Shown here: positions 4,055 to 62,041 of the stretch, one piece after another | Layout: each line of letters begins with the position of its first letter | How positions within the stretch are numbered: the stretch's first letter is position 1 | Assembly: GCA_964359165.1 (NCBI GenBank) | Contig: CAYHRV010000001.1 | Location: 28,080-92,079, forward strand | DNA from: an uncultured Elusimicrobia bacterium | GTDB taxonomy: Bacteria; Elusimicrobiota; Elusimicrobia; UBA1565 | DNA: 64,000 nucleotides | Reading direction: 5' to 3' | Position numbers and translations under genes: made by a program | The notes under the pieces: model-generated | Told to the model about the DNA's origin: nothing | What the model saw: the letters and a program-made list of their open reading frames with translations, nothing else | The model's database searches: none

Positions 4055-4066
4055 GGCCCCGGGATC

Positions 4067-20075: not shown

Positions 20076-21059
20076 TCAGAGCCCGCGGGCGCGGATGTCG
20101 TGCAGGTGAATCATGCCGACCGCCCGCCCGGCCTTGTCCACGACGGGCAGCACCAGGAAGGGGTTCTTCCTCTCGGTCATGATCGCGGCGGCCTCCATCG
20201 CCAGCCGCTCGGCGCGGATCGCGGTCGGCTTGGGGTTCATCAGCTCGCCGATGGGCCTCGACATCACATCCTGCCCTTGCTCGAGGCGGCGCCGCACGTC
20301 ATAATCGGTCACGAGGCCCACGAGCCGGCCCTTGCCGTCGACCACCGAGACCGCGCCCGAGCGCTTCTTGGTCATCTCGATAAGCATCGCTGAGGGGCTC
20401 TTGTCGATACGGATGACGGGGTTGTCCTCTCCGCAGCGCATGATGTCTGAAACGCGCAGGAGCAGGCGCTTGCCGAGGCTGCCGCCGGGGTGGCGCAGGG
20501 CGAAGTCCTCCTTGCGGAAGCCGCGCAGCTTCATCAGCGCCACGGCGAGCGCGTCGCCGACGGCCAGCGCGGCGGTCGTGCTGCAGGTCGGCGAGAGGTT
20601 CAGCGGGCAGGCCTCAGCTTCGACCGGGATCGTCAGGACCACCGAGGCGTTGCGGCCCAGGGTCGAGCGCGGGTTGGCGGTCATTGCGACGATCTTGACG
20701 CCGAGCCTCCTCAACGACGGCAGGATCCCGGTCAGCTCGTCGGACTCCCCCGACTTGCCGATCGCGAGGACGACGTCGCCCTTCTGGACCACGCCGAGGT
20801 CCCCGTGCATGCCTTCGGCGGGGTGGAGGGTAATGGCCGGGGTCCCCGTCGCGGTCAGCGTCGCGGCGATCTTCTGGCCGATCAGGCCGGACTTGCCCAT
20901 CCCGGTCACGATGACCTTGCCCCGGCAGGCGGCGAGGAGCAGGACCGCGCGCGTGTATTCGCCGTTGATCGCGTCGCGCACCCGGCGCAGCGCGTCGGCC
21001 TCCAGGTCCATGACGGTCCTGAGCTCCCGGGCGATGTCGACCTTCGGTCTGGGGGCCAT
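20076..21059 (-). CDS. kpsF: Arabinose-5-phosphate isomerase (SIS plus tandem CBS)
   Basis: VTGMGKSGLIGQKIAATL SIS motif, with a CBS pair in the C-terminal third. Confidence 0.85.
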   Translation of the reverse strand: MAPRPKVDIARELRTVMDLEADALRRVRDAINGEYTRAVLLLAACRGKVIVTGMGKSGLIGQKIAATLTATGTPAITLHPAEGMHGDLGVVQKGDVVLAIGKSGESDELTGILPSLRRLGVKIVAMTANPRSTLGRNASVVLTIPVEAEACPLNLSPTCSTTAALAVGDALAVALMKLRGFRKEDFALRHPGGSLGKRLLLRVSDIMRCGEDNPVIRIDKSPSAMLIEMTKKRSGAVSVVDGKGRLVGLVTDYDVRRRLEQGQDVMSRPIGELMNPKPTAIRAERLAMEAAAIMTERKNPFLVLPVVDKAGRAVGMIHLHDIRARGL

Positions 21060-36260: not shown

Positions 36261-37531
36261 AGTCGACTCAGACACCGGCCGAGCTCGATGCCAAGTACGG
36301 CCTGCCGGCCGATGTGAAGTTCTGCCGTCTTTGCGTGATGTCCAACCAGAAGCCCAACGCGGCCGTCGAGTACGCGCACACGAAGGACTCGAAGAAGGCG
36401 ACGGTGCACTTCGACGCCGACGGGGTGTGCGACGCCTGCCGCTACATGGAGAAGAAGCGCAAGACGATCGACTGGGACGCGCGCGACGCCGAGCTGCGCG
36501 CCCTCTGCGAGCGCTACCGCAAGACGGACGGCTCCTATGACTGCCTCGTGCCGGGCTCGGGCGGCAAGGACAGCTTCTACGCCGCGCATGTCCTGAAGTA
36601 CAAGTATGGGATGCACCCGCTGACCGTCACCTGGGCGCCGCACATCTACACCGACTGGGGCTGGAAGAACCAGCAGGCCTGGATCCACGCCGGCTTCGAC
36701 AACCTCCTCTGCACCCCGAACGGGCGGGTCCACCGGCTGCTGACCCGCCTCGCCGTCGAGAACCTCTACCATCCCTTCCAGCCCTTCATCATCGGCCAGA
36801 AGGCCCTGGCCCCGAAGATGGCCGCGCGCTACGAGATCCCGCTCGTCTTCTACGGCGAGTACGAGGCCGAGTACGGCAACCCGATCGCCGAGACGAGATC
36901 CGCCCAGAGGGACTGGTCGTATTTCACGGTCCCCGATAAGAGCAAGATCTTCCTCGGCGGCGCCGCGCTCAAGGATCTAGAGGACAATTACGGCCTCGAG
37001 CCCAACGACTTCGCGCCCTACCTGCCGGGGAACCCGGAGGACCTCAAGCGCGTCGGCGTGCAGGTGCACTACCTGGGCTATTACCTCAAGTGGCACCCGC
37101 AGAGCTGCTATTACTACGCGGTCGAGCACGGCGGCTTCCAAGCCTCGCCCGAGCGGACGCCCGGGACCTACAGCAAGTACAACAGCATCGACGACCGGAT
37201 GGATGACCTCTTCTACTACACGACCTTCATCAAGTTCGGGATCGGCCGCGCGACCTACGATGCCGCCCAGGAGATCCGCTCCGGCGACATCACGCGCGAG
37301 GAGGGCGTCGCGCTGGTGCGGCGCTTCGACGGCGAGTGGCCGGCGCGCTTTGACGAGCAGCTCTTCACCTACCTCAGCATGCCCCCCAAGGAGTTCCCGA
37401 CGGCCCACAAGATGTTCGAGTCGCCGGTGATGACGCGCGTGCGCTTCGACGCGCTCGCCGACCGCTTCCGGTCGCCGCACCTCTGGGAGAAGAAAGGGGC
37501 GGAGTGGGTCCTCCGCCACCGCGTCAGCTAG
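36257..37531 (+). CDS. N-acetyl-sugar amidotransferase (PP-loop, WbpG/PseA-like)
   Basis: Zn-ribbon-like CRLC...CDAC, then PP-loop CLVPGSGGKDS. Confidence 0.8.
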   Translation: MKSTQTPAELDAKYGLPADVKFCRLCVMSNQKPNAAVEYAHTKDSKKATVHFDADGVCDACRYMEKKRKTIDWDARDAELRALCERYRKTDGSYDCLVPGSGGKDSFYAAHVLKYKYGMHPLTVTWAPHIYTDWGWKNQQAWIHAGFDNLLCTPNGRVHRLLTRLAVENLYHPFQPFIIGQKALAPKMAARYEIPLVFYGEYEAEYGNPIAETRSAQRDWSYFTVPDKSKIFLGGAALKDLEDNYGLEPNDFAPYLPGNPEDLKRVGVQVHYLGYYLKWHPQSCYYYAVEHGGFQASPERTPGTYSKYNSIDDRMDDLFYYTTFIKFGIGRATYDAAQEIRSGDITREEGVALVRRFDGEWPARFDEQLFTYLSMPPKEFPTAHKMFESPVMTRVRFDALADRFRSPHLWEKKGAEWVLRHRVS

Positions 37532-42655: not shown

Positions 42656-44092
42656 TTAGTAAATCTCGAAGAGTTTACTGTAAGTGACCGCGGGATGAGT
42701 CAATCCCAGCCTTTCCCGCGATGACTCGCAATCCACGTCTTTCTTTGATACGGCGGCGAGAAATTCGGCGGAAAGATCTTGGTGGCCGATCGTGGCGGCG
42801 CCCTTTATTCCCCGCAGGTCGATATATTGAAGGTAATCAGGATGTGTCAGTTGAACCACGGGGCGTCCGAGCAGGAGAGCCTCTTCCAGCACCGTCGTGC
42901 TCATCCCGATGACAGCAATGGCTCTCGCCAGGGCATCTTTCAATGAGACGCCGGCGGAGACATCCATTAAGCCCTTGCGGAGACATGATTTCATCCATTT
43001 CTTGTCGGCGCGACTGACTTCCGCGTGAGGATGGAGCCGCAGCCTGACGCGCATCGGTGTCGCGGAATTCTCAATAAGCTTTCGCAGGCTCTCGATCAGA
43101 ACATCGTTATCAAAGGCGGCCAAGGCTCCCACAAACAGGTAGCAATCGCCTTTTACTCCCCTAGCAGGGGCCGCATCCTTCCAATGCGAGAAACGGCAGC
43201 TGCACCCCAGAAGGAATTTTGTGGTGCCGTAGTGAGGCGCCAGCAGTTCGATCGCATCATTACTGAATGCGTACATGACATCCGGCAGCATCAGCCCGTT
43301 CTTCCTTTCTTCGGGGCAGCAGAAATACCACCTTTTGCCGGATGAGATCGATGCGTGCTGAACGGCGTATCCCCGCGCATTATATTTGGAAGCGACCCGC
43401 CATACCACGCGCGCATGGGAGTGCATCTCATGGATGCAGCCGATCTTTTTAATGCCGTATTTCTCCACGACCTCCGATAGGGCACGTTCGAGATGGCAAG
43501 CATAAAGCCACTGAAGACTGCCCGCCCATTCAAGCCACAACAACAACAGCAGCATCTTGTCGACAAAGCCGCCTTTCACCCTGATGAATGCCCGGATTCC
43601 TCCCCAGATCATGTTCGACACGATGAACAGTTTGCGGCTGAAGGAGATTCCCTTGATGTCTTTTTCGTTCTTCCCGCAGGTGCCGGCGGGTCCGCAAACA
43701 AAGAGCCCATCATCTTTATCGGTGCGCACATACGATGTCTTATATGCCCCGGTCGAGGTTTCAGAGCCGCAGGTGGACGGCACAACCAGAAGAGTGCCGC
43801 TGATTTTTCCATACACCGCATATTTCAGCGGTTTGAAATTTATCGCCAACTTGACCGCGCCTTTTATGAAGCCGTAGAGAGTCCCAGCCGCGAGATTTAG
43901 AAGAAGCGCAGCCCGGTGCTTCTCCCTGTAGCCGTCATGCCACAGTCGGCACACGTCCGGATTTCGGGCGCTCAGAGGGGAAGCGCATATGAGCGAGGTC
44001 GCGCCCTCATCCGCGGCGCAGGAGGCGGCAGCGAGGAATTCCACGGCCAGATGCTCGATGGGATGAATGAACGAATTCTCGTCGCGCTTCAC
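42656..44092 (-). CDS. Uncharacterised GT-B-like protein (candidate CMP-ulosonic-acid transferase); start uncertain
   Basis: RLRLHPHAEV followed by MSTTVLEEALLLGRPVVQL. Last gene of the lower-G+C operon. GTG 44092 is the first start candidate downstream of the neighbouring stop. Confidence 0.45.
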   Translation of the reverse strand: MKRDENSFIHPIEHLAVEFLAAASCAADEGATSLICASPLSARNPDVCRLWHDGYREKHRAALLLNLAAGTLYGFIKGAVKLAINFKPLKYAVYGKISGTLLVVPSTCGSETSTGAYKTSYVRTDKDDGLFVCGPAGTCGKNEKDIKGISFSRKLFIVSNMIWGGIRAFIRVKGGFVDKMLLLLLWLEWAGSLQWLYACHLERALSEVVEKYGIKKIGCIHEMHSHARVVWRVASKYNARGYAVQHASISSGKRWYFCCPEERKNGLMLPDVMYAFSNDAIELLAPHYGTTKFLLGCSCRFSHWKDAAPARGVKGDCYLFVGALAAFDNDVLIESLRKLIENSATPMRVRLRLHPHAEVSRADKKWMKSCLRKGLMDVSAGVSLKDALARAIAVIGMSTTVLEEALLLGRPVVQLTHPDYLQYIDLRGIKGAATIGHQDLSAEFLAAVSKKDVDCESSRERLGLTHPAVTYSKLFEIY

Positions 44093-44123
44093 GGTGCGCC
44101 AAGAGGCTGCGCGCGAGGGATCA

Positions 44124-45056
44124 TTATGCTTCTGCTTTAAGACAATCGATTGCGTTCCGGACGGCCTCCTCTTCCATCTGCACCCTGGACTCCTTGGTGA
44201 GAGTGGCGACATGCGGAGTCATGACCATATTATCCAGCTCGCAGAGCTTGCCAACATAGGGCTCCTCGGGAAAAACATCCAGGGCGGCGCCCGCCAGGCG
44301 CCCGATTTTCAAGGCGTCATACAGCGCCATTTCATCGACCATCGATCCTCTCGATACGTTGATCAGGAAGGCCCCCGCCTTCATCGCCGCGATCTCATTC
44401 GTTCCTAGCCGGAACGGCTTTTCTTTAATGGACGACAGGTGGATGGTCAGGATATCCGACGTCCGCAGCAACTCGGCTGAAGAAACGATTTTCACCCCGG
44501 CCTGATCCGCCCAAGTCCTGTCGGGGCGGAGGTCCGTGCCGTAAACCTCCGTGCCCAGCTTCAGCATGACCTCGGCGACCCTTTTGCCGATTCTGCCGAG
44601 CCCCAGGATGCCGACTTTCTTGCCGAAAAGCAGGTTGCCGGCTTCCTTGTGCCATCGCTTCGCGCGCATGAGTCCCGCGTGGCGGGACAATCTGCGCATC
44701 AGATCGAAGGCCATGGCGATGGTGAGCTCGACGACGGGTTGGACGACGGCATCCGGCGTATTCTTGATGATGATCCGTTTGTCGGAAGCCTTCTCGGCGT
44801 CGATGTTATCGATGCCGACCCCGCATCGGCTGATGCATCTCAAGCGGGGCAGATGATCGATGACGAAGCCGTCATAAGGCTCGACGCCCGCGACGATGCC
44901 CTCGGCATCTTTCCCGAGAGCGACGATCTCTTCGCGGCTCAGGCGTTTCCCGAGCGCATTGATGGAGAAATCGAAGCCGCTGCTTTTTAGGAGTTCGAGG
45001 GGAGCGCTGCCATGCTCCGAAAATGTGGAAAGAGCCACGAATATCTTCTTCTTCAT
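44124..45056 (-). CDS. D-isomer-specific 2-hydroxyacid dehydrogenase (phosphoglycerate-dehydrogenase-like)
   Basis: Start ATG 45056 (ATGA overlap). NAD motif VGILGLGRIGKRVA. Confidence 0.8.
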   Translation of the reverse strand: MKKKIFVALSTFSEHGSAPLELLKSSGFDFSINALGKRLSREEIVALGKDAEGIVAGVEPYDGFVIDHLPRLRCISRCGVGIDNIDAEKASDKRIIIKNTPDAVVQPVVELTIAMAFDLMRRLSRHAGLMRAKRWHKEAGNLLFGKKVGILGLGRIGKRVAEVMLKLGTEVYGTDLRPDRTWADQAGVKIVSSAELLRTSDILTIHLSSIKEKPFRLGTNEIAAMKAGAFLINVSRGSMVDEMALYDALKIGRLAGAALDVFPEEPYVGKLCELDNMVMTPHVATLTKESRVQMEEEAVRNAIDCLKAEA

Positions 45057-45826
45057 AAAGCCGAGATCCGTTCGAACAATTTCTTTTGCGCCGGGTCGCT
45101 GCGCAGGATATCCTCGATCCTGGCGACATCGCCCGGCCGATCTACTCCGACGGTGTTCCGCTCGTACACGACGCCTCGTATGGCGTGGCGATGTCCCAAG
45201 ATGCGCAGGAAATCGACGGACTCCGCGATTTCCAACGAGGTCGGCGGGAGCCTGGAATAGGCGTGCAGGAAGGATTTTGTGAAGGCCGAGATTCCGGTCT
45301 GCCGATACATGGGGCAGCCGTTGCGCACGCGCAAATGCGGGATCGGGGAACGAGAAAAGCACATGATGAATCCCGTCTCATCAAGGACCGCTTTGACGAT
45401 GTCTTCATCAAGCAGGTCTGCTTCGTCCTTGATCGCGGAGATCAGGTTCGCGCAGTTCACCGTTTCGTCGGCCAAGAGCGGTTCCGTCAGGCGAGCGAGG
45501 ACTTCCGGCTCGAACAACGGCTCATCTCCCTGGACGATGACGGCGATATCCAGGTCGATCCGGCCGGCCGCTTCTTCCACCCGATCGGTGCAGCGCTCAT
45601 GCGTGTTCTTGGTCATGATGGCCTTTCCGCCGAAGCGGGTGACCGTGTCGAATATCTCCCGATCGCACGTCGCGACAGAGACATCGTCGATCGCCGCGGA
45701 GAGTAATACCCGCCTGCGCACATGCTCTATCATGGGAAGCCCGGATATCTTCACAAGCGGCTTTCCGGGGAATCTGGACGCCCCCATGCGGGCGGGGATG
45801 ACGGCCACGACCTTCTTGCGCTTCAT
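45053..45826 (-). CDS. KdsB-family cytidylyltransferase (CMP-ulosonic acid synthetase-like)
   Basis: Start ATG 45826 (MKRKKVVAVIPARMGASRFPGKPL). VQGDEPL motif. Confidence 0.8.
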   Translation of the reverse strand: MKRKKVVAVIPARMGASRFPGKPLVKISGLPMIEHVRRRVLLSAAIDDVSVATCDREIFDTVTRFGGKAIMTKNTHERCTDRVEEAAGRIDLDIAVIVQGDEPLFEPEVLARLTEPLLADETVNCANLISAIKDEADLLDEDIVKAVLDETGFIMCFSRSPIPHLRVRNGCPMYRQTGISAFTKSFLHAYSRLPPTSLEIAESVDFLRILGHRHAIRGVVYERNTVGVDRPGDVARIEDILRSDPAQKKLFERISAL

Positions 45827-45848
45827 GGTGATGTTCGTGGTCTCAGTC

Positions 45849-46616
45849 CTATTGCGTGAGCACTCCGCAGTCCACATTTATGCATTGTCCAGTGATGGCG
45901 GATGCGGCATCAGACGCCAGATAAAGACACGCATCGCCGACTTCGTCTCCCGTCGGAAGTCGTTTCAAGGCGGAATTTGCGGACGCGAATTCGTCTAAAT
46001 ATCCGTGGACATCCTTCCCCCGGGCTGGAGATCTCGGGTCCTTTAAAGCATCCAAGACCCCATCGGTCTCGATGTACACCGGGCAGACCGCGTTCACCCG
46101 GATTCCCCGCGGACCCAGCTCTTTCGCGAGCGCCTGAGTGATGCCGTTCACGCCGAATTTAGATGCGCAATAGACGGAATTGTCGGCGCTCCCCCGCTTG
46201 CCTGCAAGACTGGAGATGTTGATGATGCACCCGCCTTTGGTCAGCCTGTCCGCGGCGGCCTTACACCCCCAGAAAGTCCCCTTCAGATTCGTGTCGATCA
46301 TCTTGTTCCAGAAGCCGATGTCGACTTCGCCCGCAGGCCGCCATTCGGAAAAACCGGCGCAATTGATGTAGGCGTCAAGCCTGCCGGTCCATCCGATGGC
46401 CGCATCGATCAGTCGTCGATGATCGAGCTCGTTCCGTACATCGGCGGCATGATAGCGGGCCTTGCCGCCCAATCTTTTTGCCGAGCCTGAATCGGTTCGA
46501 GCGCCAATCATCACATCGTAGCCGTCGGCGTGGAAGACTCGAGCGATCGCCGCGCCGATGCCGCGATTGCCGCCGGTGATGATGACCGTCTTCGAGGGGC
46601 CCTTGAGCTTATTCAC
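45849..46616 (-). CDS. Short-chain dehydrogenase/reductase
   Basis: VIITGGNRGIGAA and YCASKFG. Confidence 0.85.
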   Translation of the reverse strand: MNKLKGPSKTVIITGGNRGIGAAIARVFHADGYDVMIGARTDSGSAKRLGGKARYHAADVRNELDHRRLIDAAIGWTGRLDAYINCAGFSEWRPAGEVDIGFWNKMIDTNLKGTFWGCKAAADRLTKGGCIINISSLAGKRGSADNSVYCASKFGVNGITQALAKELGPRGIRVNAVCPVYIETDGVLDALKDPRSPARGKDVHGYLDEFASANSALKRLPTGDEVGDACLYLASDAASAITGQCINVDCGVLTQ

Positions 46617-47392
46617 TAGATCGTCATCGCGGTGAATCCGCCGTCAACGGTTATCTCTGCGCCGGTCACGAAACCAGACGCCTCGGAGGCGAGCCACAGG
46701 ACGGCGCCGGACAGCTCGTCAGGCCGGCCGTATCTGGCCATCGGCGTATGTCCCAGGATAGCCCGCTCGCGGTCGGGAGAAAGGAAGTTCTTCTTGCTCC
46801 ATTCTGTCGGAAAAAATCCGGGCCGCAGGGCGTTCACTCGGACATTGTGCGGCGCCCACTCTCGGGCCAGATTCTGCGTCAGATTCCTGATCCCGGCCTT
46901 GGCTGCCGAGTAGGCGAACGCCTTCGATAAGGGAGGGCCGGCCGATGCGGAGGACAGGTTGATGATCGAGCCTCCTTTTTTCTCCACCATATGACGGCCG
47001 AATATCTGGCATCCCAGAAACGTCCCTGTCACATGCGAATCCAATATGGATTTCCATTCTTCAACGGAAATATCAAAAAAAGGGGTCGGGGCGTTGATGC
47101 CTGCGCCGTTTATCAGCACATCGACATCGTCGAATTCTTCGATCACCCTGCGCAGGGCTTCTTCGTGGGCGGCTTTTTCGGTGACCTGCAGCGGGACCCC
47201 GATCGCCGTCCCGCCTTCCTTTCTGATCTTCGAAACCACGGCATTCATGGCCGCGGCATTCCTGTCTAAAACGGCGACGCGCACGCCGGCTTTGCCGAGG
47301 GCCGACGCCATCTCGCCGCACAGGAACCCCGCTCCGCCGATAACGGCCGCCGTTTTTCCGTCCAACTTAAAGAGTCGTGTCAGGTAATCCAT
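46616..47392 (-). CDS. Short-chain dehydrogenase/reductase
   Basis: Start ATG 47392 (MDYLTRLFKLDGKTAAVIGGAGFLCGE). YSAAKAG. Confidence 0.8.
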   Translation of the reverse strand: MDYLTRLFKLDGKTAAVIGGAGFLCGEMASALGKAGVRVAVLDRNAAAMNAVVSKIRKEGGTAIGVPLQVTEKAAHEEALRRVIEEFDDVDVLINGAGINAPTPFFDISVEEWKSILDSHVTGTFLGCQIFGRHMVEKKGGSIINLSSASAGPPLSKAFAYSAAKAGIRNLTQNLAREWAPHNVRVNALRPGFFPTEWSKKNFLSPDRERAILGHTPMARYGRPDELSGAVLWLASEASGFVTGAEITVDGGFTAMTI

Positions 47393-48080
47393 TTTTCCTT
47401 CCGTGCGCGCCATGCCATGCCGCGATGCATGACTTGGCCTGCGCCAAGTCGTCGAAGCATTTGATTCCAAGCCCGCTGAAATCGTAGCCGGAATTTCTCC
47501 CGATGAAGACGCACCCGATGCCCTTCGCGACCTCATAGTCTTCTTTGCTGTCTCCGATGTAAAGGATGTCCACGGGTCGGACATCCTCGGCGCGCATGAT
47601 CCGTTCGAATATCGCCTTCTTCGGCGCGGGCGCGCCGTATATGCCCTTGAAATACCGATGAAGTCCTCGGCGCTTCAGAATGACGGTCAATTCATCCAGC
47701 GGCGTCGCGGAAGCCATGTAGAGCGGGCATTTCTTGGAAAAAAATCCAAGGAACTCGAGTGCGCCGTCGACGTAGGGGCATGCGATGATCCCGTCCCTGG
47801 TCATGGCCGAAAACCGCGTCGCCCAGTCGTTTGCGCGGGCGCTATCGAACTCCTGTTTCAATATGTGCTCCATGATATGCCTGAACTTGTCATGCCGGTT
47901 GACGGCATTGTGAGCGTGATGATACGCCATTATTTCCCGATGGTGAGAAGGGAATTCCGAGAAGATATGAGAAAACGCACGACGCTTGATGTCGTTTGAT
48001 TCGACGATGACGCCGTCGAAATCGAGGACGATGACCTTGAGGGAATTTATCGTCAGGCTCCGTCGCCCTTTGCTTCGCAT
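47367..48080 (-). CDS. HAD-superfamily phosphatase
   Basis: Motif I VLDFDGVIVES near the N-terminus. Start is ATG 48080, or CTG 48056 overlapping the aldolase stop (CTGA). Confidence 0.7.
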   Translation of the reverse strand: MRSKGRRSLTINSLKVIVLDFDGVIVESNDIKRRAFSHIFSEFPSHHREIMAYHHAHNAVNRHDKFRHIMEHILKQEFDSARANDWATRFSAMTRDGIIACPYVDGALEFLGFFSKKCPLYMASATPLDELTVILKRRGLHRYFKGIYGAPAPKKAIFERIMRAEDVRPVDILYIGDSKEDYEVAKGIGCVFIGRNSGYDFSGLGIKCFDDLAQAKSCIAAWHGAHGRKNGLPDTTL

Positions 48081-48850
48081 ATGATCATCCTGGCTGTTTC
48101 GCTCCACTTCCAAAGTATGAAGATGTCCGAAGCGAGGACGACAAAGGTGTATCCGGCCGCAAATGCGGCCTGAACGTTGTCGCGGTCCGGCTCGATCACT
48201 TGCGTGCCGCATGCCTTGCCGTGTCGGGCGCAGGCGGCGATGACCGTTTTCTCCGCCGCCGCCACCAGTGGATGGTCCAGCCGGCCGGGGACCCCCAGGG
48301 AGCCGGAAAGATCGTAAGGCCCGATCATCGCGCCGTCGACCTCCGGGTAGGAGATCATCTTATCGATATTCTCAACGCCCTGGATCGATTCGATCTGGAT
48401 GATCAATGCCGAGGATTCGTTCCAGCCCTTCGTGTGGTCATGGAAATCAAAGCCGTAGCCTTGTCCCCTGGCTATGCCGAAGCTTCGTTTTCCCAACGGC
48501 GGATACTTGCACCAGGAGATCAATTGCTCGACCTCCCCCGGAGTATTGACCATCGGAGCGATGATCCCATCCGCCCCCGAATCCAAAAGCCGCTTTATCG
48601 CCTCCATGCTGTGGGACGCTATCCGGGGCAGGCACAGCGTCCCATTCCCCTGACATGCGGCCATGATCCGTTGAGATTGCTCCTGGCTGATGGTGCTGTG
48701 CTCGAGGTCTATGCCGATGAAGTCGACTCCTGATCGCGCGAGGATCTCGGTCACCGAGGGATGGGAGAGCGAGGTCCACCCGGCAAAAGCCCGCTTTCGG
48801 CCGCGCAATCTTGTCTTTAGGGCGCGGCGATTTTCGTTCGTGTCATGCAT
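48053..48850 (-). CDS. HpcH/HpaI-family (class II, pyruvate-specific) aldolase
   Basis: DFIGIDLEHS metal-site motif and an overall HpaI/GarL-like sequence. Confidence 0.8.
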   Translation of the reverse strand: MHDTNENRRALKTRLRGRKRAFAGWTSLSHPSVTEILARSGVDFIGIDLEHSTISQEQSQRIMAACQGNGTLCLPRIASHSMEAIKRLLDSGADGIIAPMVNTPGEVEQLISWCKYPPLGKRSFGIARGQGYGFDFHDHTKGWNESSALIIQIESIQGVENIDKMISYPEVDGAMIGPYDLSGSLGVPGRLDHPLVAAAEKTVIAACARHGKACGTQVIEPDRDNVQAAFAAGYTFVVLASDIFILWKWSETARMIICEAKGDGA

Positions 48851-48856
48851 GCGTTG

Positions 48857-49561
48857 TCAGCCTTGTCTCGAACGGGAGAGTAATTTTTCCGTTTTTGCGG
48901 CATCGGAGAGGAACATCTGGACCGTTTCTTTTGAATAGGGATGCACGATCATTCCCCTCAGGATATCCGGGACAACGGTGACGATGTCCGCTCCAGCGTC
49001 AAGCCACTCTATGACGTTCAAAACCTCGCGAGTGGACCCGATGATTATCTTGGCCGGCAGCTTGTGGTAGTCCAGAACCTTGCGCAGTTTTTTTATCTCA
49101 TCATTGCAATTATATCCCATGTTGTTGACTCGGCCGCCGAATAGGGACACATAGGTCGAGCCGGCCAAGGCGGCGAGCAGGCACTGTTGCGCGCTCATCA
49201 TGGCTGTCGCATTCACCTGGACCTTATATCTGTCGGTCAATTCGCGGATGGCCGCCAGATTCTCGATCTCTCCGTCGGGGCCGTGTATGGGTATTTTAAC
49301 ATTGATATTGTCGGCCCATTTCGCGCACTCCCTCGCCTGCGTGATCATCCCCTGATAATCGTTTGTGGTGACTTCCACGGACAAGGGATAGGGGGCGATC
49401 ATCTTGGCTATCTGGATGAACCTGTCCTTGAGGGCCTTTCTGCCGCTGGTCACGCCGTCTTTGAGCAATATGGTCGGATTCGTGGTCACTCCCCGGATAA
49501 CGCCCATTTTCAGATATTTCTCGATCTCCGTGACGTTCCCTGAATCCAAGAAAATCGCCAT
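48857..49561 (-). CDS. Transaldolase-family protein (short TalC / fructose-6-phosphate-aldolase type)
   Basis: MAIFLDSGNVTEIEKY and GVTTNPT motifs. 234 aa fits the short subfamily. Confidence 0.8.
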   Translation of the reverse strand: MAIFLDSGNVTEIEKYLKMGVIRGVTTNPTILLKDGVTSGRKALKDRFIQIAKMIAPYPLSVEVTTNDYQGMITQARECAKWADNINVKIPIHGPDGEIENLAAIRELTDRYKVQVNATAMMSAQQCLLAALAGSTYVSLFGGRVNNMGYNCNDEIKKLRKVLDYHKLPAKIIIGSTREVLNVIEWLDAGADIVTVVPDILRGMIVHPYSKETVQMFLSDAAKTEKLLSRSRQG

Positions 49562-49588
49562 TGTCTCCTCCAGTCCTCGTCCTGATCT

Positions 49589-50194
49589 CTATTTACGCGT
49601 GACCGATTCCCACTTGTTGCTGATTTTCATGACACGGGGATCGGAAACGATCAGATGCCAGATGAGACCCTGGAAGGATTCAGCGTGCGGGGTCACGGTA
49701 TCTGGATTTACCGTCGGGATGATCACGCAGACGTCCGCGGTCTTGGCGGTAAAACCTCCGTCTCTTCCGACGATTCCCATGATCTTGGCATTTTGTGATC
49801 TGGCATATTCCAAGGCGTAGACTAAATTGGCGCTGATGTTCTTCTCTTTATCCCCACCGCCCACTGAAAACACAAAGACGCCGTCCTTTTCGCTTAATCG
49901 GCTGGTTTTGAGCCATTCCGAGAAAACCGTATGCCAGCCTTCATCATTCGTGCGAGCGGTCAGCTCGGAAACGTTGTCCACGGGAGAATAGGATTCTATG
50001 CCGCCGATTTTCCTGAAGTCATTGACCGCATGAGAGCAATTTCCCGCGCTGCCGCCGACGCCGATAAAAAACAAGCGCCCTTCGGATTCCCGGATGGACA
50101 GGATCAGCTTGATCATCTTTTCCACGGCGGACTTGTCGATCCGCTTGATGATTGATGCCGCGTCGGCGAAGTACTCGTCTGTGTGCGACGTCAT
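49589..50194 (-). CDS. gmhA: SIS-domain sugar-phosphate isomerase (GmhA / phosphoheptose-isomerase-like)
   Basis: FFIGVGGSAGNCSHAVNDF motif. About 200 aa, a single SIS domain. Confidence 0.75.
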   Translation of the reverse strand: MTSHTDEYFADAASIIKRIDKSAVEKMIKLILSIRESEGRLFFIGVGGSAGNCSHAVNDFRKIGGIESYSPVDNVSELTARTNDEGWHTVFSEWLKTSRLSEKDGVFVFSVGGGDKEKNISANLVYALEYARSQNAKIMGIVGRDGGFTAKTADVCVIIPTVNPDTVTPHAESFQGLIWHLIVSDPRVMKISNKWESVTRK

Positions 50195-50212
50195 CGATTC
50201 TCCGTTGGGGGA

Positions 50213-51226
50213 TTATTTCTTCCGCAGCACTATCCGGGCGTATGAGCTCAGCAGGTTCTCCTGAAGGAACTCCTGAAAAAGAGTCTTGGATTCCGCGCCG
50301 CGGCTGCGCAGCATGTATTCCATGGGCCTCGAAAGCTTGATCTCGGGGTTGTGCCGCACGGCGGTTTCTACAAGTTCGACGTCGAGGATCCCCGGGGTGC
50401 TGAATTCAAGACATTCGAAATCATGTCTTTTAAATAGCGCCCTGAGTCCTTCAACGGTGAATACATTCAGGCGGTCCGGGGGGAAGATGTTCTCGGCCTT
50501 GTCCCAGAGGGTCTGGAGGTCGAACCCGGAGATCAGGATGTCGGTCATAAAGCACAGGCCGTTCTTCTTCAGCATGGCCCGAAGCGCCGCGAAGAGCGCA
50601 TCGACGTCCCCGGCGTTGTCGGCAACCTCGAATATCGAAACGACATCGGCGCCGTTTTTGAGCGGGGCGGGATCAAGCGACGCATTCAGGATATTGATGC
50701 GGCCGCTCAGCGCCGCATCGTCTAGGCGGATGCGGGGGTTGAGGAGTGTTTTTCTCGTGAAGAAGGCGTTGTCCAGCAGCTCATCGATATAGCCGTACTG
50801 CTCCGTGTTGACGTCGACGATATGCTCGGCCTCCGGCAGGTTCTCCTGCGTCGAATCCAGTATCCAGTCGAAGCGAGGCCTGATGATCTTGTCCTGTCTT
50901 TTCCGGTTCGTTTTTTTTGATAGTTCATCGCGCCAATAATCCCTGGCGGCCGATTTCGCATAGTACCCATTCAGTGCGGCGTCATCGGGCCGTGGAGAAA
51001 CATACAGCGTGGAACAATCGGGACATTCCACATACTGCATGCCGAGCTTGGCGAACGACGCCTTGCCGTTTTTGCCGCGGCAGCCGGGACAGGGACTGTC
51101 TTTGAGAGCGTGTTTCGGGAAATAAACATCGACATCTTTTTCGGTGAGCTGGATGTATCTTTTAAAAAGGTCGAACGGCCTCAGGTCGATCTCGTTGTAT
51201 TCATCAGAGATGACGATCTTTTTCAT
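50213..51226 (-). CDS. Zn-ribbon plus methyltransferase-like protein (SAM motif degenerate)
   Basis: CPGCRG...YVECPDCSTLYVSPRP zinc-ribbon as in many class I methyltransferases. No clean GxGxG SAM loop seen. Confidence 0.5.
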   Translation of the reverse strand: MKKIVISDEYNEIDLRPFDLFKRYIQLTEKDVDVYFPKHALKDSPCPGCRGKNGKASFAKLGMQYVECPDCSTLYVSPRPDDAALNGYYAKSAARDYWRDELSKKTNRKRQDKIIRPRFDWILDSTQENLPEAEHIVDVNTEQYGYIDELLDNAFFTRKTLLNPRIRLDDAALSGRINILNASLDPAPLKNGADVVSIFEVADNAGDVDALFAALRAMLKKNGLCFMTDILISGFDLQTLWDKAENIFPPDRLNVFTVEGLRALFKRHDFECLEFSTPGILDVELVETAVRHNPEIKLSRPMEYMLRSRGAESKTLFQEFLQENLLSSYARIVLRKK

Positions 51227-52266
51227 CTGATCGGCTCCCTCAGCCGGTGTTCGGCTGCGTCGGCATAGGCTTTTTCAATGATTTCCATGACCCTCAGCGC
51301 ATCTTCCGAGGAGCTCTTGGTGATCGGGATATCCCGGTCGATGCATTTGACGAACTCCTCGACTTCCAAGTCCCACGACAGATCCCTGTCGAAATACGTG
51401 ACCTCTTCGGAGGGATTGCCGACCGCCGCGGCTTCGTCTTCGAACTGCCTCTTCCCGATGATGATCTGTTCTCTCCCGTAGCTGCCCGATTTCGAAAGGA
51501 GTCCTTCGACGGTGACGTAGCCCTCTTGAAGCGTGATGTCTATCTTGAAAGTATGCTTCCACATGGTGGCGGATGAGTGAAAAAAGGCATTCTGCCCGAG
51601 CTTGTTCTGGAGGATGATATAGGCGTTGTCTTCAACGTCGAAATTCCAGAACGAGCTGCTGATGAAGCCCTTGACCGATTCAAAGTCGCCGCAGAAATAC
51701 CGGAATAAGTCGAGCATGTGGATCCCCTGATCCAGCAGTATCCCCCCACCCGAGATATGCTTGTTGTTGCGCCAGGAATTCGCGAAATTGACGCCGCCGG
51801 ATTTCCCGTAGAGGCCGCGGACGTTGACGATCCCTCCGAGTCTGCCGTTATCGACCAACGCCTTGGCCTTGACGATCCCGGGATGGAAGCGATGATTGAA
51901 CCCGAACATCAGTTTCACGCCGGCATTTTGTTTTTCAGCGCGGATGATGTCCTCGATGTCCCGGACATCGCAGCCCGGCGGCTTCTCGCAGAAAACGTGG
52001 ATATTTTTATTCATGCTCTTTATGCATATTTCCGGCGAGTAATGGTTCGGGGTGCAGACAAAGACGATGTCCAGGTCTTCCTGGAAGAGTTGTTCGTGCG
52101 AATCGAAGACGGGGCAGCCCTTGATTTTCTCCCGGGCCTTGGGATTCGTGTCGCTGATGCCGACCAAGGATAATCTCGGGCTGCGCTCCAATACGCCTCT
52201 GCGGATCTCCCCCATGTATCCATACCCGACGATGCCGGCTCTTAATTCTTTGCGCGTTTCGGGCAT
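51223..52266 (-). CDS. Gfo/Idh/MocA-family oxidoreductase
   Basis: GIVGYGYMG Rossmann N-terminus. ATGA overlap with the downstream gene. Confidence 0.8.
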   Translation of the reverse strand: MPETRKELRAGIVGYGYMGEIRRGVLERSPRLSLVGISDTNPKAREKIKGCPVFDSHEQLFQEDLDIVFVCTPNHYSPEICIKSMNKNIHVFCEKPPGCDVRDIEDIIRAEKQNAGVKLMFGFNHRFHPGIVKAKALVDNGRLGGIVNVRGLYGKSGGVNFANSWRNNKHISGGGILLDQGIHMLDLFRYFCGDFESVKGFISSSFWNFDVEDNAYIILQNKLGQNAFFHSSATMWKHTFKIDITLQEGYVTVEGLLSKSGSYGREQIIIGKRQFEDEAAAVGNPSEEVTYFDRDLSWDLEVEEFVKCIDRDIPITKSSSEDALRVMEIIEKAYADAAEHRLREPIR

Positions 52267-52273
52267 GTCGACA

Positions 52274-52840
52274 TTACTCCGGGGATGGGAAGCGGAGGGC
52301 GTGGAAATCGAGGAGCGTCACGAACCTCTGCCCCGGGGCAGGCTGGGGGACGCGCTCCTCCGTCGCGATGAAGACGGTGCCGGGCCGGGGACCGAGGGCC
52401 TTGAAGGTCTCGGCGTACTCGAGCCTTAGCCCGGGCAGGGCTAGATCGTTCACGGCCCCTTGCACCGCCTTGGCCGTTTCGGGCCAGGCGACGACCGTCG
52501 CCTCGTGCACGCCGGTCTCGTACTCGCGGCGCATCGAGTCTTGCACGGCGGCGATGATCTGGTGGAAGAGACGGATCGTGTGCAGAGTGTAGGCGAAGGA
52601 CTTGCGGCTCTTCTCGATCGCGCCCTTCATGGTGAGGAGGTATTCGGTCCGCTTCCAGTCGAGCTGACGGATTTTGATATAGCCCTTGCGCGCCAGACGC
52701 ATGAGCAGGATGTTGGTCATCCCCAAAGACAGTCCGATGCGCTTGGAGATCGCTCTCTGGGTCTGGCCGGGATTATCGGCCACGGCCTGCATGAGGGCAT
52801 ACTCGTTGAGGGCGAACCCTTTGGAAGTCGGCTGGGGCAT
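52274..52840 (-). CDS. Winged-helix (MarR-like) transcriptional regulator with an uncharacterised C-terminal domain
   Basis: QTQRAISKRIGLSLGMTNILLMRLARKGYIKI helix-turn-helix plus wing. High G+C, unlike the ten genes it precedes. 7-nt gap to the next gene. Confidence 0.65.
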   Translation of the reverse strand: MPQPTSKGFALNEYALMQAVADNPGQTQRAISKRIGLSLGMTNILLMRLARKGYIKIRQLDWKRTEYLLTMKGAIEKSRKSFAYTLHTIRLFHQIIAAVQDSMRREYETGVHEATVVAWPETAKAVQGAVNDLALPGLRLEYAETFKALGPRPGTVFIATEERVPQPAPGQRFVTLLDFHALRFPSPE

Positions 52841-61918: not shown

Positions 61919-62041
61919 GACCCAGCCCTCCGGAGGGAGCGGCGCCTTGCATCAGAAACGGGAAGAATGTTGTTGATCGGGACGCTTCCAAGGTGTTGAT
62001 TACCGTTGGAATATTAGCAAATCGCATCCGAGCGCCGCCGA

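Follow-up and report, generated by a model that had tools for sequence, protein, structure and literature searches.

A low-GC gene cassette that probably makes a CMP-activated 2-ulosonic acid with an aldolase in place of a PEP-dependent synthase

How might an acidic sugar be built for CMP activation where a metal-dependent aldolase occupies the place of a synthase? To our knowledge, all known pathways to CMP-activated acidic sugars use a Kdo- or sialic-acid-type synthase. The question is raised by a 64,000-nucleotide stretch of DNA from an uncultured Elusimicrobia bacterium, the whole of which is called the window here, and for which a preliminary description had proposed a rebuilding of the Kdo pathway around a pyruvate aldolase. 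Open reading frame, Pfam and NCBIfam analysis recovered every gene named in that description, all on the minus strand and with coordinates identical or very close to those given, and added a methyltransferase-fold/zinc-ribbon gene (50213-51226) that had been overlooked. The genes belong to a low-GC block of eleven tightly packed genes on the minus strand at 42656-52266, given below with other features of the window.

52274..52840, minus strand: winged-helix (HTH_24/MarR-like) regulator (Pfam), 7 nt upstream of the cassette, GC3 0.86 (host-type)
51223..52266, minus strand: Gfo/Idh/MocA NAD(P) oxidoreductase (Pfam), first gene of the low-GC cassette
50213..51226, minus strand: protein with a class I methyltransferase fold and a Cys4 ribbon at the N terminus (Pfam, AF2, Foldseek)
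49589..50194, minus strand: single-domain SIS protein, GmhA-like (Pfam SIS_2/SIS)
48857..49561, minus strand: short transaldolase, TalC/FSA family (PF00923, 129.8 bits)
48053..48850, minus strand: HpcH/HpaI-family class II (metal-dependent) 2-oxoacid aldolase (PF03328, 107.8 bits)
47367..48080, minus strand: HAD-IA phosphatase (Pfam HAD_2/Hydrolase; TIGR01549)
46616..47392, minus strand: first SDR (SDRa), like D-mannonate, 5-ketogluconate and hexonate oxidoreductases (NF006132, 264 against a cutoff of 281; PDB 4G81)
45849..46616, minus strand: second classical SDR (Pfam, NCBIfam)
45053..45826, minus strand: KdsB/KpsU-like cytidylyltransferase (CTP_transf_3, 140 bits)
44124..45056, minus strand: D-2-hydroxyacid dehydrogenase, most similar to short phosphoglycerate dehydrogenases (Pfam, NCBIfam, PDB)
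42656..44092, minus strand: protein with a GT-B fold, 478 aa, family unannotated, closing the low-GC block (AF2, Foldseek)
37498..37517, minus strand: GC-rich, terminator-like hairpin followed by a T-rich tail, directly behind the final gene of the co-directional string 52840-37524
20076..21059: kpsF (TIGR00393, 308.6 against a cutoff of 203.7)

Over exactly 42656-52266, GC was 55-59% against approximately 69% in the surroundings, and GC3 was approximately 0.7 against approximately 0.9 for host-type genes. Neighboring cassette genes either overlapped or lay at most 44 nt apart, with overlaps of 4 nt between the methyltransferase-fold start and the Gfo stop, 28 nt between the HAD start and the aldolase stop, and 4 nt between the 2-hydroxyacid dehydrogenase start and the cytidylyltransferase stop. 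Moreover, the only intergenic terminator-like site in the co-directional string followed its last gene, which together with the tight spacing argues for co-transcription. The regulator does not belong to the mobile cassette, and no homolog of it was found beside the cassette in the other loci compared. The compositional drop, the gene overlaps and the terminator position speak for horizontal transfer and an operon structure. In the favored explanation, the block is probably a self-contained cassette, gained by such transfer, that both makes and uses a CMP-activated 2-ulosonic acid without a KdsA/NeuB-type PEP-dependent synthase.

Ten of the genes, in the order Gfo, methyltransferase-fold protein, SIS, transaldolase, aldolase, HAD, SDR, SDR, cytidylyltransferase and 2-hydroxyacid dehydrogenase, were collinear on one strand in approximately 60 independent polysaccharide loci. 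More than 10 phyla were represented, and such recurrence is far beyond chance. The carriers were dozens of bacteria, mostly uncultured. Orthologs of the aldolase subfamily were 55-85% identical across phyla and came from Omnitrophota, Planctomycetota, Chloroflexota, Thermodesulfobacteriota, SAR324, Bdellovibrionota, Elusimicrobiota, Acidobacteriota, a Methanomicrobiaceae metagenome-assembled genome (MAG) and the cultured Kiloniella laminariae. Forty-two loci were complete, each flank extending 6 kb or more; in each of these the cassette genes found shared a strand, and they spanned a median of 8.4 kb. Under strict thresholds Gfo was present in 40, the methyltransferase-fold protein in 39, SIS in 38, HAD and each SDR in 35, the cytidylyltransferase in 34, the transaldolase in 31 and the 2-hydroxyacid dehydrogenase in 28. 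The SDRs were kept or lost as a pair, both being missing in L011 and L013. Transaldolase, SIS or HAD was absent from some loci (L013, L029, L050 and L052), and thus the supply of the acceptor is not fixed, which counts against the favored explanation. The cassette was flanked or interrupted by Wzx-type flippases, GT2 and GT4 glycosyltransferases, and methyl- and acetyltransferases; variant loci added O-methyl- and O-acetyltransferases, and no aminotransferase was seen flanking or interrupting it in the polysaccharide loci inspected. A distant, minimal version on an Acuticoccus plasmid comprised the aldolase (39% identical), a cytidylyltransferase, the phosphoglycerate dehydrogenase-like 2-hydroxyacid dehydrogenase (40%) and HAD (36%).

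The preliminary description reported kpsF and neither kdsA nor kdsC in the window, and we agree: kdsA was absent among the scanned open reading frames, and no KdsC-type HAD-IIIA protein was seen in the window. One candidate for kdsA, at 62944-63966, was rejected; it is the only DAHP_synth_1-family gene in the window, KDO8P synthase models scored under cutoff, and it encodes a DAHP synthase I-beta in a shikimate operon (NF006421, 484.7 bits). The same inventory had passed over a complete NeuB/NeuC/NeuA-type nonulosonic-acid cluster. Were canonical synthases to supply the cassette cytidylyltransferase with ordinary Kdo or this neighboring nonulosonic acid, the aldolase and its companions could be catabolic or could make, for example, a side-chain substituent. 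NeuB/NeuC/NeuA genes adjoin the cassette both in the window and in L001, SDRa is like the hexonate/mannonate oxidoreductases of sugar-acid catabolism, and PF03328 enzymes are classically catabolic, their known physiological role being retro-aldol cleavage (PMC7610986). However, NeuB occurred within 10 kb of the cassette in only 3 of approximately 65 loci and DAHPS/KdsA-family open reading frames in none, and the window's Neu cluster has its own NeuA-like cytidylyltransferase (approximately 24226-24915). Moreover, the pairing of an HpcH aldolase with a KdsB-like gene was found in at least 34 of the 42 complete loci, on one strand and in polysaccharide loci, and the cassette loci had no catabolic transporter, kinase or dehydratase. 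Finally, MAGs with the labels Chloroflexota, CPR (Uhrbacteria) and Methanomicrobiaceae, in which lipopolysaccharide Kdo is not expected, also carry the cassette. We conclude that supply by canonical synthases is highly unlikely.

The aldolase scored far under the HpaI, GarL and RhmA equivalog cutoffs of NCBIfam and was approximately 30% identical to YfaU and GarL. Residues D48, E50, H51, R76, Q152, E154 and D180 were invariant among 66 orthologs, and because these include the catalytic Arg, Glu, Asp and His, the enzyme is counted as competent. Aldolases of the HpcH family take polyhydroxy aldehydes, and some take hydroxypyruvate (PMC7610986). We propose that the cassette aldolase would form the C-C bond. 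We note that the equilibrium of PF03328 aldolases is not strongly synthetic, which counts against the favored explanation.

The cytidylyltransferase passed the NCBI KdsB subfamily model NF009905 (259.7 against a cutoff of 255), fell 0.5 bit short of the kdsB equivalog cutoff, and was closest in the PDB to the E. coli capsule enzyme KpsU (1GQ9, 153.6 bits). By these scores ordinary Kdo could be its substrate. Its N-terminal CTP motifs were retained, but sugar-domain His, Tyr and LEQLR positions were altered in 51 of 51 orthologs. The solved KdsB/KpsU sequences compared all have the His of RH(I/V)GIYAY and the Glu of LEQLR, whereas the His was found in none of the 51 cassette enzymes and the Glu was replaced by Asp in 48. 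The changes argue for a substrate other than Kdo. In both the Acuticoccus plasmid and L061, a NeuA-type cytidylyltransferase took the place of the KdsB-like enzyme, and we know of both subfamilies only as activators of 2-ulosonic acids. Together with the collinear recurrence and the lack of nearby KdsA-family genes, this exchange in two distant versions makes it very probable that the end product is a CMP-activated 2-ulosonic acid formed with no PEP-dependent synthase; the cytidylyltransferase is the proposed activating enzyme.

The acid could be a known sugar, CMP-Kdo or CMP-Kdn, if the aldolase joined pyruvate to arabinose-5-P or mannose-6-P and the oxidoreductases were minor tailoring enzymes. 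Consistent with this are the KdsB model match and KpsU proximity, the kpsF gene, and the succession of isomerase, condensation, phosphatase and cytidylyltransferase reactions, which matches the Kdo and Kdn-9-P routes. Besides the altered sugar domain, several observations speak against it. kpsF lies 23 kb from the cassette, has host GC, and occurs within 10 kb of it elsewhere only in L012. The cassette's SIS protein, confirmed as to family, is GmhA-like and not KdsD/KpsF-like as a Kdo-type isomerase would be: its best NCBIfam match was GmhA (46.6 bits against a cutoff of 209), as was every PDB match. Neither arabinose-5-P nor mannose-6-P needs a dedicated transaldolase, and four oxidoreductases are conserved. 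We consider a known sugar unlikely. Kdo-pathway logic survives only as a set of reaction types, while the details of isomerase, phosphatase, transaldolase and cytidylyltransferase differ.

Residues H55, D59, N83, D84, E172, Q175 and H180 of the SIS protein were invariant among 58 orthologs. The transaldolase scored 157 against a cutoff of 246 for TIGR00875, and its orthologs shared invariant D6, E63, K89 and R144, with Phe or Leu, never Tyr, at position 141. Its assignment to a transaldolase/F6P-aldolase family was sound, but the signature (Glu63, Phe/Leu141) is of the transaldolase type and not that of F6P-aldolase. Because the transaldolase Lys and Glu and the SIS protein's His/Asp/Glu/His set are invariant, both enzymes are counted as competent, and the SIS protein is a proposed ketose-phosphate to aldose-phosphate isomerase. 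A HAD phosphatase is likewise present, as Kdo logic demands, but it is HAD-IA and not KdsC-type; HAD-IIIA models of NCBIfam scored under cutoff, and weak PDB matches were 2AH5 and the sugar phosphatase TM_1254.

Gfo scored below every NCBIfam equivalog cutoff and was closest in the PDB to inositol dehydrogenases, levoglucosan dehydrogenase, DgpA and YjhC, and is a probable sugar ring-hydroxyl oxidoreductase. The methyltransferase-fold protein matched only the C-terminal half of Methyltransf_23 in Pfam, and the glycine-rich SAM loop (GxGxG) was absent from the family alignment. Its AF2 model (pLDDT 84.6) gave a methyltransferase fold in Foldseek, with the cyclase SpnF as top match. We note that the data force no pathway step on this protein, Gfo or the 2-hydroxyacid dehydrogenase, which counts against the favored explanation.

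The 2-hydroxyacid dehydrogenase had been grouped with tailoring enzymes. Instead, it belongs to the minimal conserved set with the aldolase, HAD and cytidylyltransferase, and in L069, from which it is absent, an Ldh_2-family 2-oxoacid/2-hydroxyacid oxidoreductase in the operon functionally replaces it. Retention and replacement imply that this function is required, and they make dedicated hydroxypyruvate supply a serious alternative to pyruvate. The dehydrogenase, with or without HAD, would draw hydroxypyruvate from glycerate or 3-phosphoglycerate, and the product would be a 3-hydroxy (Ko-like), not 3-deoxy, 2-ulosonic acid. Its nearest solved relatives are phosphoglycerate dehydrogenases (1WWK, human PHGDH), then glyoxylate/hydroxypyruvate reductases, and its gene overlaps that of the cytidylyltransferase in both the window and Acuticoccus versions. 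Hydroxypyruvate, unlike pyruvate, requires a dedicated supply. It was accepted by 19 of 571 class II aldolases tested (PMC7610986). However, most characterized HpcH enzymes prefer pyruvate, oxidation of glycerate or 3-phosphoglycerate is thermodynamically uphill, and several loci have the dehydrogenase without HAD. Moreover, a route through 3-phosphohydroxypyruvate and a sugar-phosphate acceptor would need two dephosphorylations from a single phosphatase. We regard hydroxypyruvate as a possible but not the favored donor; it would change the product chemistry and otherwise be a variant of the same explanation. Thus, of the earlier proposal of a CMP-activated 2-keto-3-deoxy acid made without a KdsA/NeuB synthase, comparative genomics gives strong, though indirect, support to the dedicated aldolase route, but the 3-deoxy character is not assured.

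The terminal protein starts at a GTG (44092), with an upstream ATG at 44212 possible, and had no Pfam or NCBIfam match. Its AF2 model (pLDDT 92) confirmed the GT-B fold suggested earlier. An hhalign comparison with a family of approximately 600 aa, encoded upstream of Gfo in other loci, gave 98.4%, and one homolog, P0184, is fused to a GT2 domain. We propose that it may be the transferase for the CMP-sugar. Because its top Foldseek matches are 2-epimerases, it could instead be a NeuC-like hydrolysing epimerase.

We infer the following pathway for a CMP-activated 2-ulosonic acid from the families of the proteins and the context of their genes. Transaldolase and SIS isomerase would produce an aldose phosphate from pentose-phosphate-pathway intermediates, in the simplest case heptose-7-P from sedoheptulose-7-P or, alternatively, octose-8-P as by LmbR/LmbN. 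The aldolase would join the enolate of a C3 2-oxoacid, pyruvate or hydroxypyruvate, to the aldehyde, with hydroxypyruvate coming from the action of the 2-hydroxyacid dehydrogenase on glycerate or 3-phosphoglycerate. HAD would then remove the phosphate, making an otherwise reversible condensation irreversible. Gfo and the SDR pair would alter hydroxyl stereochemistry or oxidation state, the KdsB-like enzyme would form the CMP-sugar, and the GT-B-fold protein would move the sugar onto the glycan whose synthesis the surrounding locus encodes. The resulting acid would probably exceed Kdo in size (C9-C11) and lack amino groups.

We found no published description of the cassette in the literature, and it is apparently undescribed. 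If the pathway is correct, a metal-dependent aldolase of the cassette stands in the synthase's place for a CMP-activated acidic sugar. Its transaldolase and isomerase pair is similar to the octose-phosphate module in which octose-8-P is built by the transaldolase LmbR and the isomerase LmbN (PMC4351081, PMC5854111).

GC content is approximately 69% in the window and 55 to 59% in the block from 42656 to 52266, where third-position GC is 0.66 to 0.74, compared with approximately 0.9 in the flanking genes. The low-GC block, here called the cassette, consists of eleven genes, all on the minus strand. Domain and family assignments indicated that each gene listed for this block in a preliminary description was real and correctly placed. 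The genes in order of transcription, assigned by domain and family searches except for the methyltransferase-fold and 478-amino-acid proteins, and a downstream hairpin are:

51223-52266, minus strand, Gfo/Idh/MocA oxidoreductase (Gfo), first in transcription order
50213-51226, minus strand, methyltransferase-fold (MT-fold) protein with an N-terminal Cys4 ribbon, second in transcription order
49589-50194, minus strand, single-domain SIS protein
48857-49561, minus strand, short transaldolase-family protein (TAL)
48053-48850, minus strand, HpcH/HpaI aldolase (HpcH)
47367-48080, minus strand, HAD-IA phosphatase
46616-47392, minus strand, SDR (SDRa)
45849-46616, minus strand, second SDR
45053-45826, minus strand, KdsB-like cytidylyltransferase (CTase)
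44124-45056, minus strand, D-2-hydroxyacid dehydrogenase (2-HADH)
42656-44092, minus strand, 478-amino-acid protein without any family match, last in transcription order
37517-37498, minus strand, GC-rich hairpin and T tract, 3′ of the last gene of the co-directional string

The co-directional string begins with a winged-helix regulator gene of host GC (52274-52840), passes through the cassette, and continues into four host-GC genes encoding a methyltransferase, a pyruvate-kinase-barrel/ATP-sulfurylase fusion, an APS kinase, and a sulfatase-family protein. By coordinates, adjacent genes either share 1 to 28 nt or have no more than 44 nt between them, and the string from the regulator through the cassette to the hairpin resembles one operon. 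The fusion gene (39733-41895, minus strand; pyruvate-kinase barrel, PUA_2, and ATP sulfurylase), which is followed by the APS kinase gene, also adjoins the cassette in two loci from other genomes (L003, 1-2139; L034, approximately 2967-5130), and a fragment is found in another (L002). The fusion protein may regenerate ATP from phosphoenolpyruvate (PEP) for PAPS synthesis with release of pyruvate and, together with a sulfotransferase (29120-30145), suggests a sulfated glycan.

The remainder of the window is a single large glycan region. A complete NeuB/NeuC/NeuA-type cluster occupies 16249-36260 (especially 25901-28063, minus strand) and includes genes for a KedN5-family B12 radical-SAM C-methyltransferase, an FkbM methyltransferase, a sulfotransferase, and a HisH/HisF-like amidotransferase. 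Its nonulosonic-acid set contains an aminotransferase, a dehydratase, PglD-like and other acetyltransferases, the HisH/HisF-like genes, and the following:

32130-33176, NeuB
33503-34681, NeuC
31018-32133, CBS-nucleotidyltransferase
approximately 24226-24915, NeuA/PseF-like cytidylyltransferase belonging to the NeuB set

Also in the glycan region are kpsF, GT2 genes, and an ABC exporter. Three of its open reading frames (ORFs) with host-type codon bias (22142-24220 and 28074-29123, minus strand, and 36257-37531, plus strand; 692, 349, and 424 amino acids) had no Pfam match and could encode transferases, polymerases, or ligases of unrecognized families. A gene for a TPR-containing Ser/Thr protein kinase lies amid the glycan genes (11090-13465, plus strand) and is a hint of a host resembling Myxococcota or Deltaproteobacteria. 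GC is also low in a second patch (4001-6000, 58.5%), apparently a further insertion of foreign DNA, in which an AAA_14/DUF4143 ATPase gene (4067-5401, minus strand; GC3 of 0.71) has a sulfatase-family gene on one side and GT2 genes on the other. Adjoining the glycan region is a housekeeping shikimate operon (56603-63966, minus strand; DAHP synthase I-beta, aroA, aroE, aroC, aroK, aroB, and aroQ), and the window's chorismate synthase is identical in protein sequence to one on a Hainich groundwater metagenome contig.

Thousands of homologs of the aldolase were found, the closest 120 of which were 63 to 100% identical and came from metagenomes of many lineages. All proteins of the island were compared by tblastn with 80 aldolase-bearing loci from a one-genome-per-species scan, the taxon labels of metagenome-assembled genomes (MAGs) being those of the depositors. 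The gene order Gfo, MT-fold, SIS, TAL, HpcH, HAD, SDR, SDR, CTase, 2-HADH recurred in approximately 60 of the 80 loci. Carriers of this order were Omnitrophota, Planctomycetota (including Scalindua), Chloroflexota/Dehalococcoidia, Thermodesulfobacteriota/Syntrophaceae, SAR324, Bdellovibrionota/Oligoflexia, Elusimicrobiota, Acidobacteriota, Aminicenantes, an Uhrbacteria (CPR) MAG, a Methanomicrobiaceae MAG, and alphaproteobacteria such as Kiloniella laminariae, which is cultured, together with a Halopseudomonas MAG, Pseudodesulfovibrio, and Magnetovibrio. In the 42 loci that extended 6 kb or more to either side of the aldolase, every cassette gene found was on the same strand, and the median span was 8.4 kb. 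At strict score thresholds, Gfo was present in 40 of the 42, the MT-fold gene in 39, SIS in 38, TAL in 31, HAD and each SDR in 35, CTase in 34, and 2-HADH in 28, with some apparent absences being divergent copies or cassettes stretched by insertions beyond the 10-kb flank. The CTase count bears out the co-occurrence of aldolase and KdsB-like genes in glycan loci for which the preliminary description had proposed a search. We conclude that the block is a conserved, mobile cassette.

Genes inserted in cassettes encoded FkbM-type and class I methyltransferases, hexapeptide acetyltransferases, and GT2 or GT4 glycosyltransferases, and no aminotransferase was among them. The annotated surroundings of the cassettes contained Wzx-type flippases, GT2 and GT4 proteins, and PFTS_polysacc proteins. 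Cassette loci are thus biosynthetic polysaccharide loci, and a catabolic role for the aldolase was rejected on this context. In two loci, proteins of the recent Pfam family PFTS_polysacc (PF27878) are encoded immediately upstream of a GT-B-like gene followed by the cassette (L086, 3204-5111; L087, 3019-4800); no PF27878 homolog was found in the window, and a literature search on the family name yielded nothing.

To our knowledge, all CMP-ulosonic acid routes (Kdo, Kdn, sialic, legionaminic, and pseudaminic) need PEP-dependent synthases of the KdsA/NeuB type. Among all ORFs within 10 kb of the cassette in approximately 65 loci, no DAHPS/KdsA-family protein was detected, and NeuB was encoded near the cassette in only three loci, consistent with the original suggestion of a route that proceeds without such a synthase. 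The sole KdsA-family (DAHP_synth_1) gene among the scanned window ORFs (62944-63966) encodes a DAHP synthase with a ferredoxin-like domain in the aroA-E-C-K-B-Q operon, such that the reported lack of kdsA and kdsC holds for the scanned ORFs. The window kpsF was considered as a cassette partner and rejected, as the gene has host GC, lies at a distance of 23 kb, and has no counterpart next to other cassettes.

In place of the PEP-dependent synthase, the cassette encodes an aldolase that passed its Pfam model (PF03328) with 107.8 bits against a cutoff of 25 over residues 25 to 244. Residues R76, E154, D180, H51, and Q152 aligned with YfaU, and we take R76 to be the catalytic Arg, E154 and D180 the metal-binding Glu and Asp, and H51 the His by reference to HpaI and YfaU. 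D48, E50, H51, R76, Q152, E154, and D180 were invariant in 66 cassette aldolase orthologs. Identity to YfaU/RhmA and GarL was approximately 30%, and scores fell below the NCBIfam equivalog cutoffs for HpaI (128.5 versus 368.8), GarL (124 versus 406.75), and RhmA (109 versus 441). The invariant catalytic set, together with scores far below the equivalog cutoffs, marks the protein as a class II 2-oxoacid aldolase that is predicted to be competent and that represents a new subfamily.

Three further proteins could act on sugar phosphates. The SIS protein matched only GmhA structures in the PDB, weakly, and scored 46.6 bits against the GmhA equivalog cutoff of 209. His55, Asp59, Glu172, and His180 were invariant with GmhA-like spacing and presumably resemble the GmhA zinc site, and ND and GGG motifs were also present. 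We read the protein as a probable GmhA-type ketose-phosphate/aldose-phosphate isomerase with a differing substrate or phosphate loop. TAL scored 157 against TIGR00875 (cutoff of 246) and retained Asp6, Glu63, Lys89, and Arg144, with K89 and E63 invariant. In this superfamily the Lys forms the Schiff base, and Glu/Phe at two discriminating positions denotes transaldolase whereas Gln/Tyr denotes fructose-6-phosphate aldolase. Position 141 was Phe in 44 cassette orthologs, Leu in 9, and Tyr in none and, with Glu63, marks the protein as a putative transaldolase of the short TalC type; of the two activities first offered for this enzyme, the fructose-6-phosphate aldolase is the one that falls away. 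The phosphatase belongs to HAD-IA and scored 22 with the HAD-IIIA model, for which the cutoff is 44.6.

The CTase was closest to KpsU of the Escherichia coli capsule (1GQ9; 153.6 bits) and scored at the NCBI KdsB thresholds (259.7 versus 255 for subfamily NF009905; 154.7 versus 155.2 for the kdsB equivalog TIGR00466). The N-terminal CTP motifs, FSR, and GVD were retained. At C-terminal positions invariant in solved KdsB/KpsU sequences, the His of RH(I/V)GIYAY was Gln, Ile, Val, or Leu in all 51 cassette CTases, the first Tyr was replaced by Ser, Leu, or Met in 50, and LEQLR became (V/I)D(F/Q)LR, with Asp for Glu in 48. These positions are presumably Kdo contacts, and the changes in the sugar domain point to a sugar other than Kdo.

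A four-gene version of the cassette on a plasmid of the cultured marine alphaproteobacterium Acuticoccus sp. I52.16.1 encodes an aldolase (39% identity), a 2-HADH annotated as phosphoglycerate dehydrogenase (40%), a HAD hydrolase (36%), and a CTase of the "acylneuraminate cytidylyltransferase family," which is of the NeuA type rather than the KdsB type. This version (L088; NZ_CP094833.1, 40686-43847) lies beside UDP-sugar dehydrogenase and GT2 genes and would be a handy experimental entry point. A NeuA-type CTase likewise replaces the KdsB type in a Bdellovibrionales locus (L061). We know of KdsB-type and NeuA-type CTases only for 2-ulosonic acids, and the exchange of one for the other suggests a CMP-ulosonic acid as the final product. 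This nonorthologous displacement is the strongest single argument for such an end product.

The remaining proteins include four oxidoreductases. In a marine alphaproteobacterial locus (L069), 2-HADH is absent and an Ldh_2-family oxidoreductase is encoded in the operon, indicating that a 2-oxoacid/2-hydroxyacid redox step is core rather than tailoring. Gfo resembles ring-hydroxyl oxidoreductases, including YjhC, which we understand to act on a sialic acid derivative, and SDRa resembles hexonate and mannonate oxidoreductases. Both SDRs were lost jointly in two loci (L011 and L013), as expected of an optional oxidation/reduction (epimerization) pair. Structure prediction and structure search indicated a class I methyltransferase fold for the MT-fold protein, to which profile searches against the PDB and structure prediction added only generic methyltransferase-fold matches. 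GxGxG (motif I) was in none of 18 aligned orthologs, its position being taken by VDVNTEQYG in the window and EVVTPPSE in a second clade. Approximately 55 orthologs have invariant SGFD, PPDR, STPG, and FLQ motifs and have lost the glycine-rich SAM loop, and in every case the gene shows translational coupling to Gfo. In the structure search the best match was the cyclase SpnF, which has the MT fold but does not act as a methyltransferase.

The 478-amino-acid protein has approximately 100 homologs, all annotated as hypothetical and devoid of Pfam domains, one of which is fused to a GT2 domain. An AlphaFold (AF2) model was obtained with a pLDDT of 92 and a pTM of 0.89, and Foldseek matched the model with a probability of 1.0 to UDP-GlcNAc 2-epimerases, GtfA, TarM, and lipopolysaccharide glycosyltransferases (TM scores of 0.33 to 0.54), in agreement with the GT-B-like character assigned at first. 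Profile comparison related the protein (98.4% probability) to an unannotated family of approximately 600 amino acids encoded directly upstream of Gfo in most other loci, and thus a GT-B-fold protein travels with the cassette. We regard this protein as the putative transferase of the cassette product, and the match to UDP-GlcNAc 2-epimerases leaves some room for a NeuC-like hydrolyzing epimerase instead.

Taken as a putative transferase, the GT-B-fold protein would complete the following pathway. TAL and the isomerase would supply an aldose phosphate, to which the aldolase would add a C3 2-oxoacid. The translationally coupled HAD phosphatase would strip the phosphate and pull the reversible aldol reaction forward, Gfo and the SDRs would retailor the product, and the CTase would activate the sugar acid before transfer by the GT-B protein. 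As TAL is missing in approximately one-quarter of cassettes and SIS in a few, the ketose phosphate is probably one also available from central metabolism, which favors conversion of sedoheptulose-7-phosphate to heptose-7-phosphate. Octose-8-phosphate is a possible alternative acceptor by analogy to the lincomycin enzymes LmbR and LmbN (PMC4351081, PMC5854111). Part of the HpcH family accepts hydroxypyruvate as a nucleophile (PMC7610986). With pyruvate as the donor, 2-HADH would have no role, whereas with hydroxypyruvate, which could arise from glycerate or 3-phosphoglycerate via the phosphoglycerate dehydrogenase-like enzyme, all four genes of the minimal version would have one. A hydroxypyruvate donor would give a 3-hydroxylated, Ko-like product instead of a 3-deoxy one, and we regard the two donors as roughly comparable in likelihood. 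As a rough estimate of chain length, C10 would be the front-runner but short of an even chance, C11, C9, and C8 would each be about equally and distinctly less probable, and some other length would be slightly more probable than any one of those three. Two other routes were set aside: a tartronate-semialdehyde acceptor (reverse GarL, giving a C6 ulosaric acid) permits no pyranose and leaves TAL and the isomerase without a role, and oxidation of an aldose via aldonate to 2-keto-aldonate by Gfo and 2-HADH makes the aldolase superfluous. We propose, tentatively and as a reading rather unlikely to hold as a whole, that the cassette makes a surface sugar of a new class, namely a nonamino C10 or C11 CMP-2-ulosonic acid built from pyruvate or hydroxypyruvate and heptose-7-phosphate or octose-8-phosphate by the first HpcH aldolase of an anabolic glycan pathway. 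The module itself is mobile and occurs in Omnitrophota, Planctomycetota, Chloroflexota, and Desulfobacterota-type lineages and also in an archaeal MAG.

Genome surveys of "sialic acid-like" sugars use KdsA/NeuB-type synthases as markers, and a widespread aldolase-based route would therefore escape them. Such a route would provide a new surface building block for abundant uncultured groundwater, marine, and wastewater lineages and a biosynthetic role for the HpcH aldolase family, and its enzymes would be of interest as biocatalysts in the synthesis of long-chain keto-sugar acids and their CMP donors. The cultured carrier K. laminariae and recently published mass spectrometry methods for CMP-sugars make the question directly testable. 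A literature search that stopped short of subscription journals found no link of PF03328 aldolases to cytidylyltransferases or ulosonic acid biosynthesis and nothing relevant on HpcH with legionaminic or nonulosonic acids or ten- or eleven-carbon acids; "HpcH" and "cytidylyltransferase" were co-mentioned only in an unrelated genome report. Unexplained di-N-acetylated C10 CMP-ulosonic acids have been described in Magnetospirillum (SugarBase; bioRxiv 10.64898/2026.04.20.719630). Being di-N-acetylated, they were rejected as the cassette product and better fit the type of NeuB/B12-radical-SAM cluster next door, whose product, if a nonulosonic acid with C-methylation and chain extension, would match the Magnetospirillum acids.

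Individual cassette enzymes both resemble and depart from known systems. HpcH/HpaI, GarL, RhmA (YfaU), and SwHKA share with the cassette aldolase the Pfam family, TIM-barrel class, and conserved Arg/Glu/Asp/His set, and their addition of pyruvate or hydroxypyruvate to polyhydroxy aldehydes is documented in vitro. They serve catabolism of aromatics or sugar acids, and the physiological role of PF03328 aldolases is described as catabolic (PMC7610986), whereas the cassette subfamily is placed in glycan biosynthesis and has invariants of its own (e.g., Q56, Q58, Q60, R61, R128, Y179, K248, and W249). Like GmhA, the isomerase has one SIS domain, a similar length, and the GGSA..H...(D/E), ND.G, and C-terminal E/Q...H motifs, but the Ser/Thr-rich phosphate loop is exchanged for an invariant SVGGG and the HldE, GmhB, or HddC partners of GmhA heptose pathways are lacking. 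By function, the cassette recalls the lincomycin cluster, in which the dedicated transaldolase LmbR and sugar-phosphate isomerase LmbN yield octose-8-phosphate (PMC4351081, PMC5854111), with a HAD phosphatase and a nucleotidyltransferase acting next. The lincomycin octose phosphate, however, is activated directly as a GDP-sugar without aldolase extension or CMP, and TAL is dispensable in approximately one-quarter of cassettes.

As a whole, the cassette is close in logic to the canonical CMP-Kdo pathway: in both, sugar-phosphate isomerization precedes addition of a C3 unit to an aldose phosphate, dephosphorylation, and CTP-dependent activation, and the CTase is a true homolog (KpsU, 1GQ9). The Kdo logic first ascribed to the island therefore stands for reaction types and CTase homology and gives way elsewhere: KdsA is replaced by an unrelated PF03328 metal aldolase using a 2-oxoacid instead of PEP, the isomerase is GmhA-like without CBS domains rather than of the KdsD/KpsF type (SIS plus two CBS; KpsF/GutQ model), the phosphatase is HAD-IA rather than KdsC-type HAD-IIIA, the CTase sugar-binding motifs are altered, and the cassette has four oxidoreductases, the MT-fold protein, and a transaldolase in addition. 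Nonulosonic acid and Kdn pathways (NeuC, NeuB or Kdn-9-phosphate synthase, phosphatase, and NeuA) similarly provide CMP-activated 2-ulosonic acids for surface glycans, two distant cassette versions have a NeuA-type CTase, and nonulosonic acid clusters adjoin the cassette in, for example, the window and locus L001. Unlike those pathways, the cassette has no NeuB-type synthase, aminotransferase, N-acetyltransferase, or nucleotide-sugar starting point. In reaction types, the cassette parallels both the Kdo and the Kdn-9-phosphate pathways. Judged by sequence, it would belong to neither, because KdsA/NeuB, a KdsD-type isomerase, and a KdsC-type phosphatase are lacking and the CTase is the only, and a divergent, family member. 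What would be new relative to both is CMP-ulosonic acid biosynthesis in which the key synthase is replaced and the precursor logic is its own.
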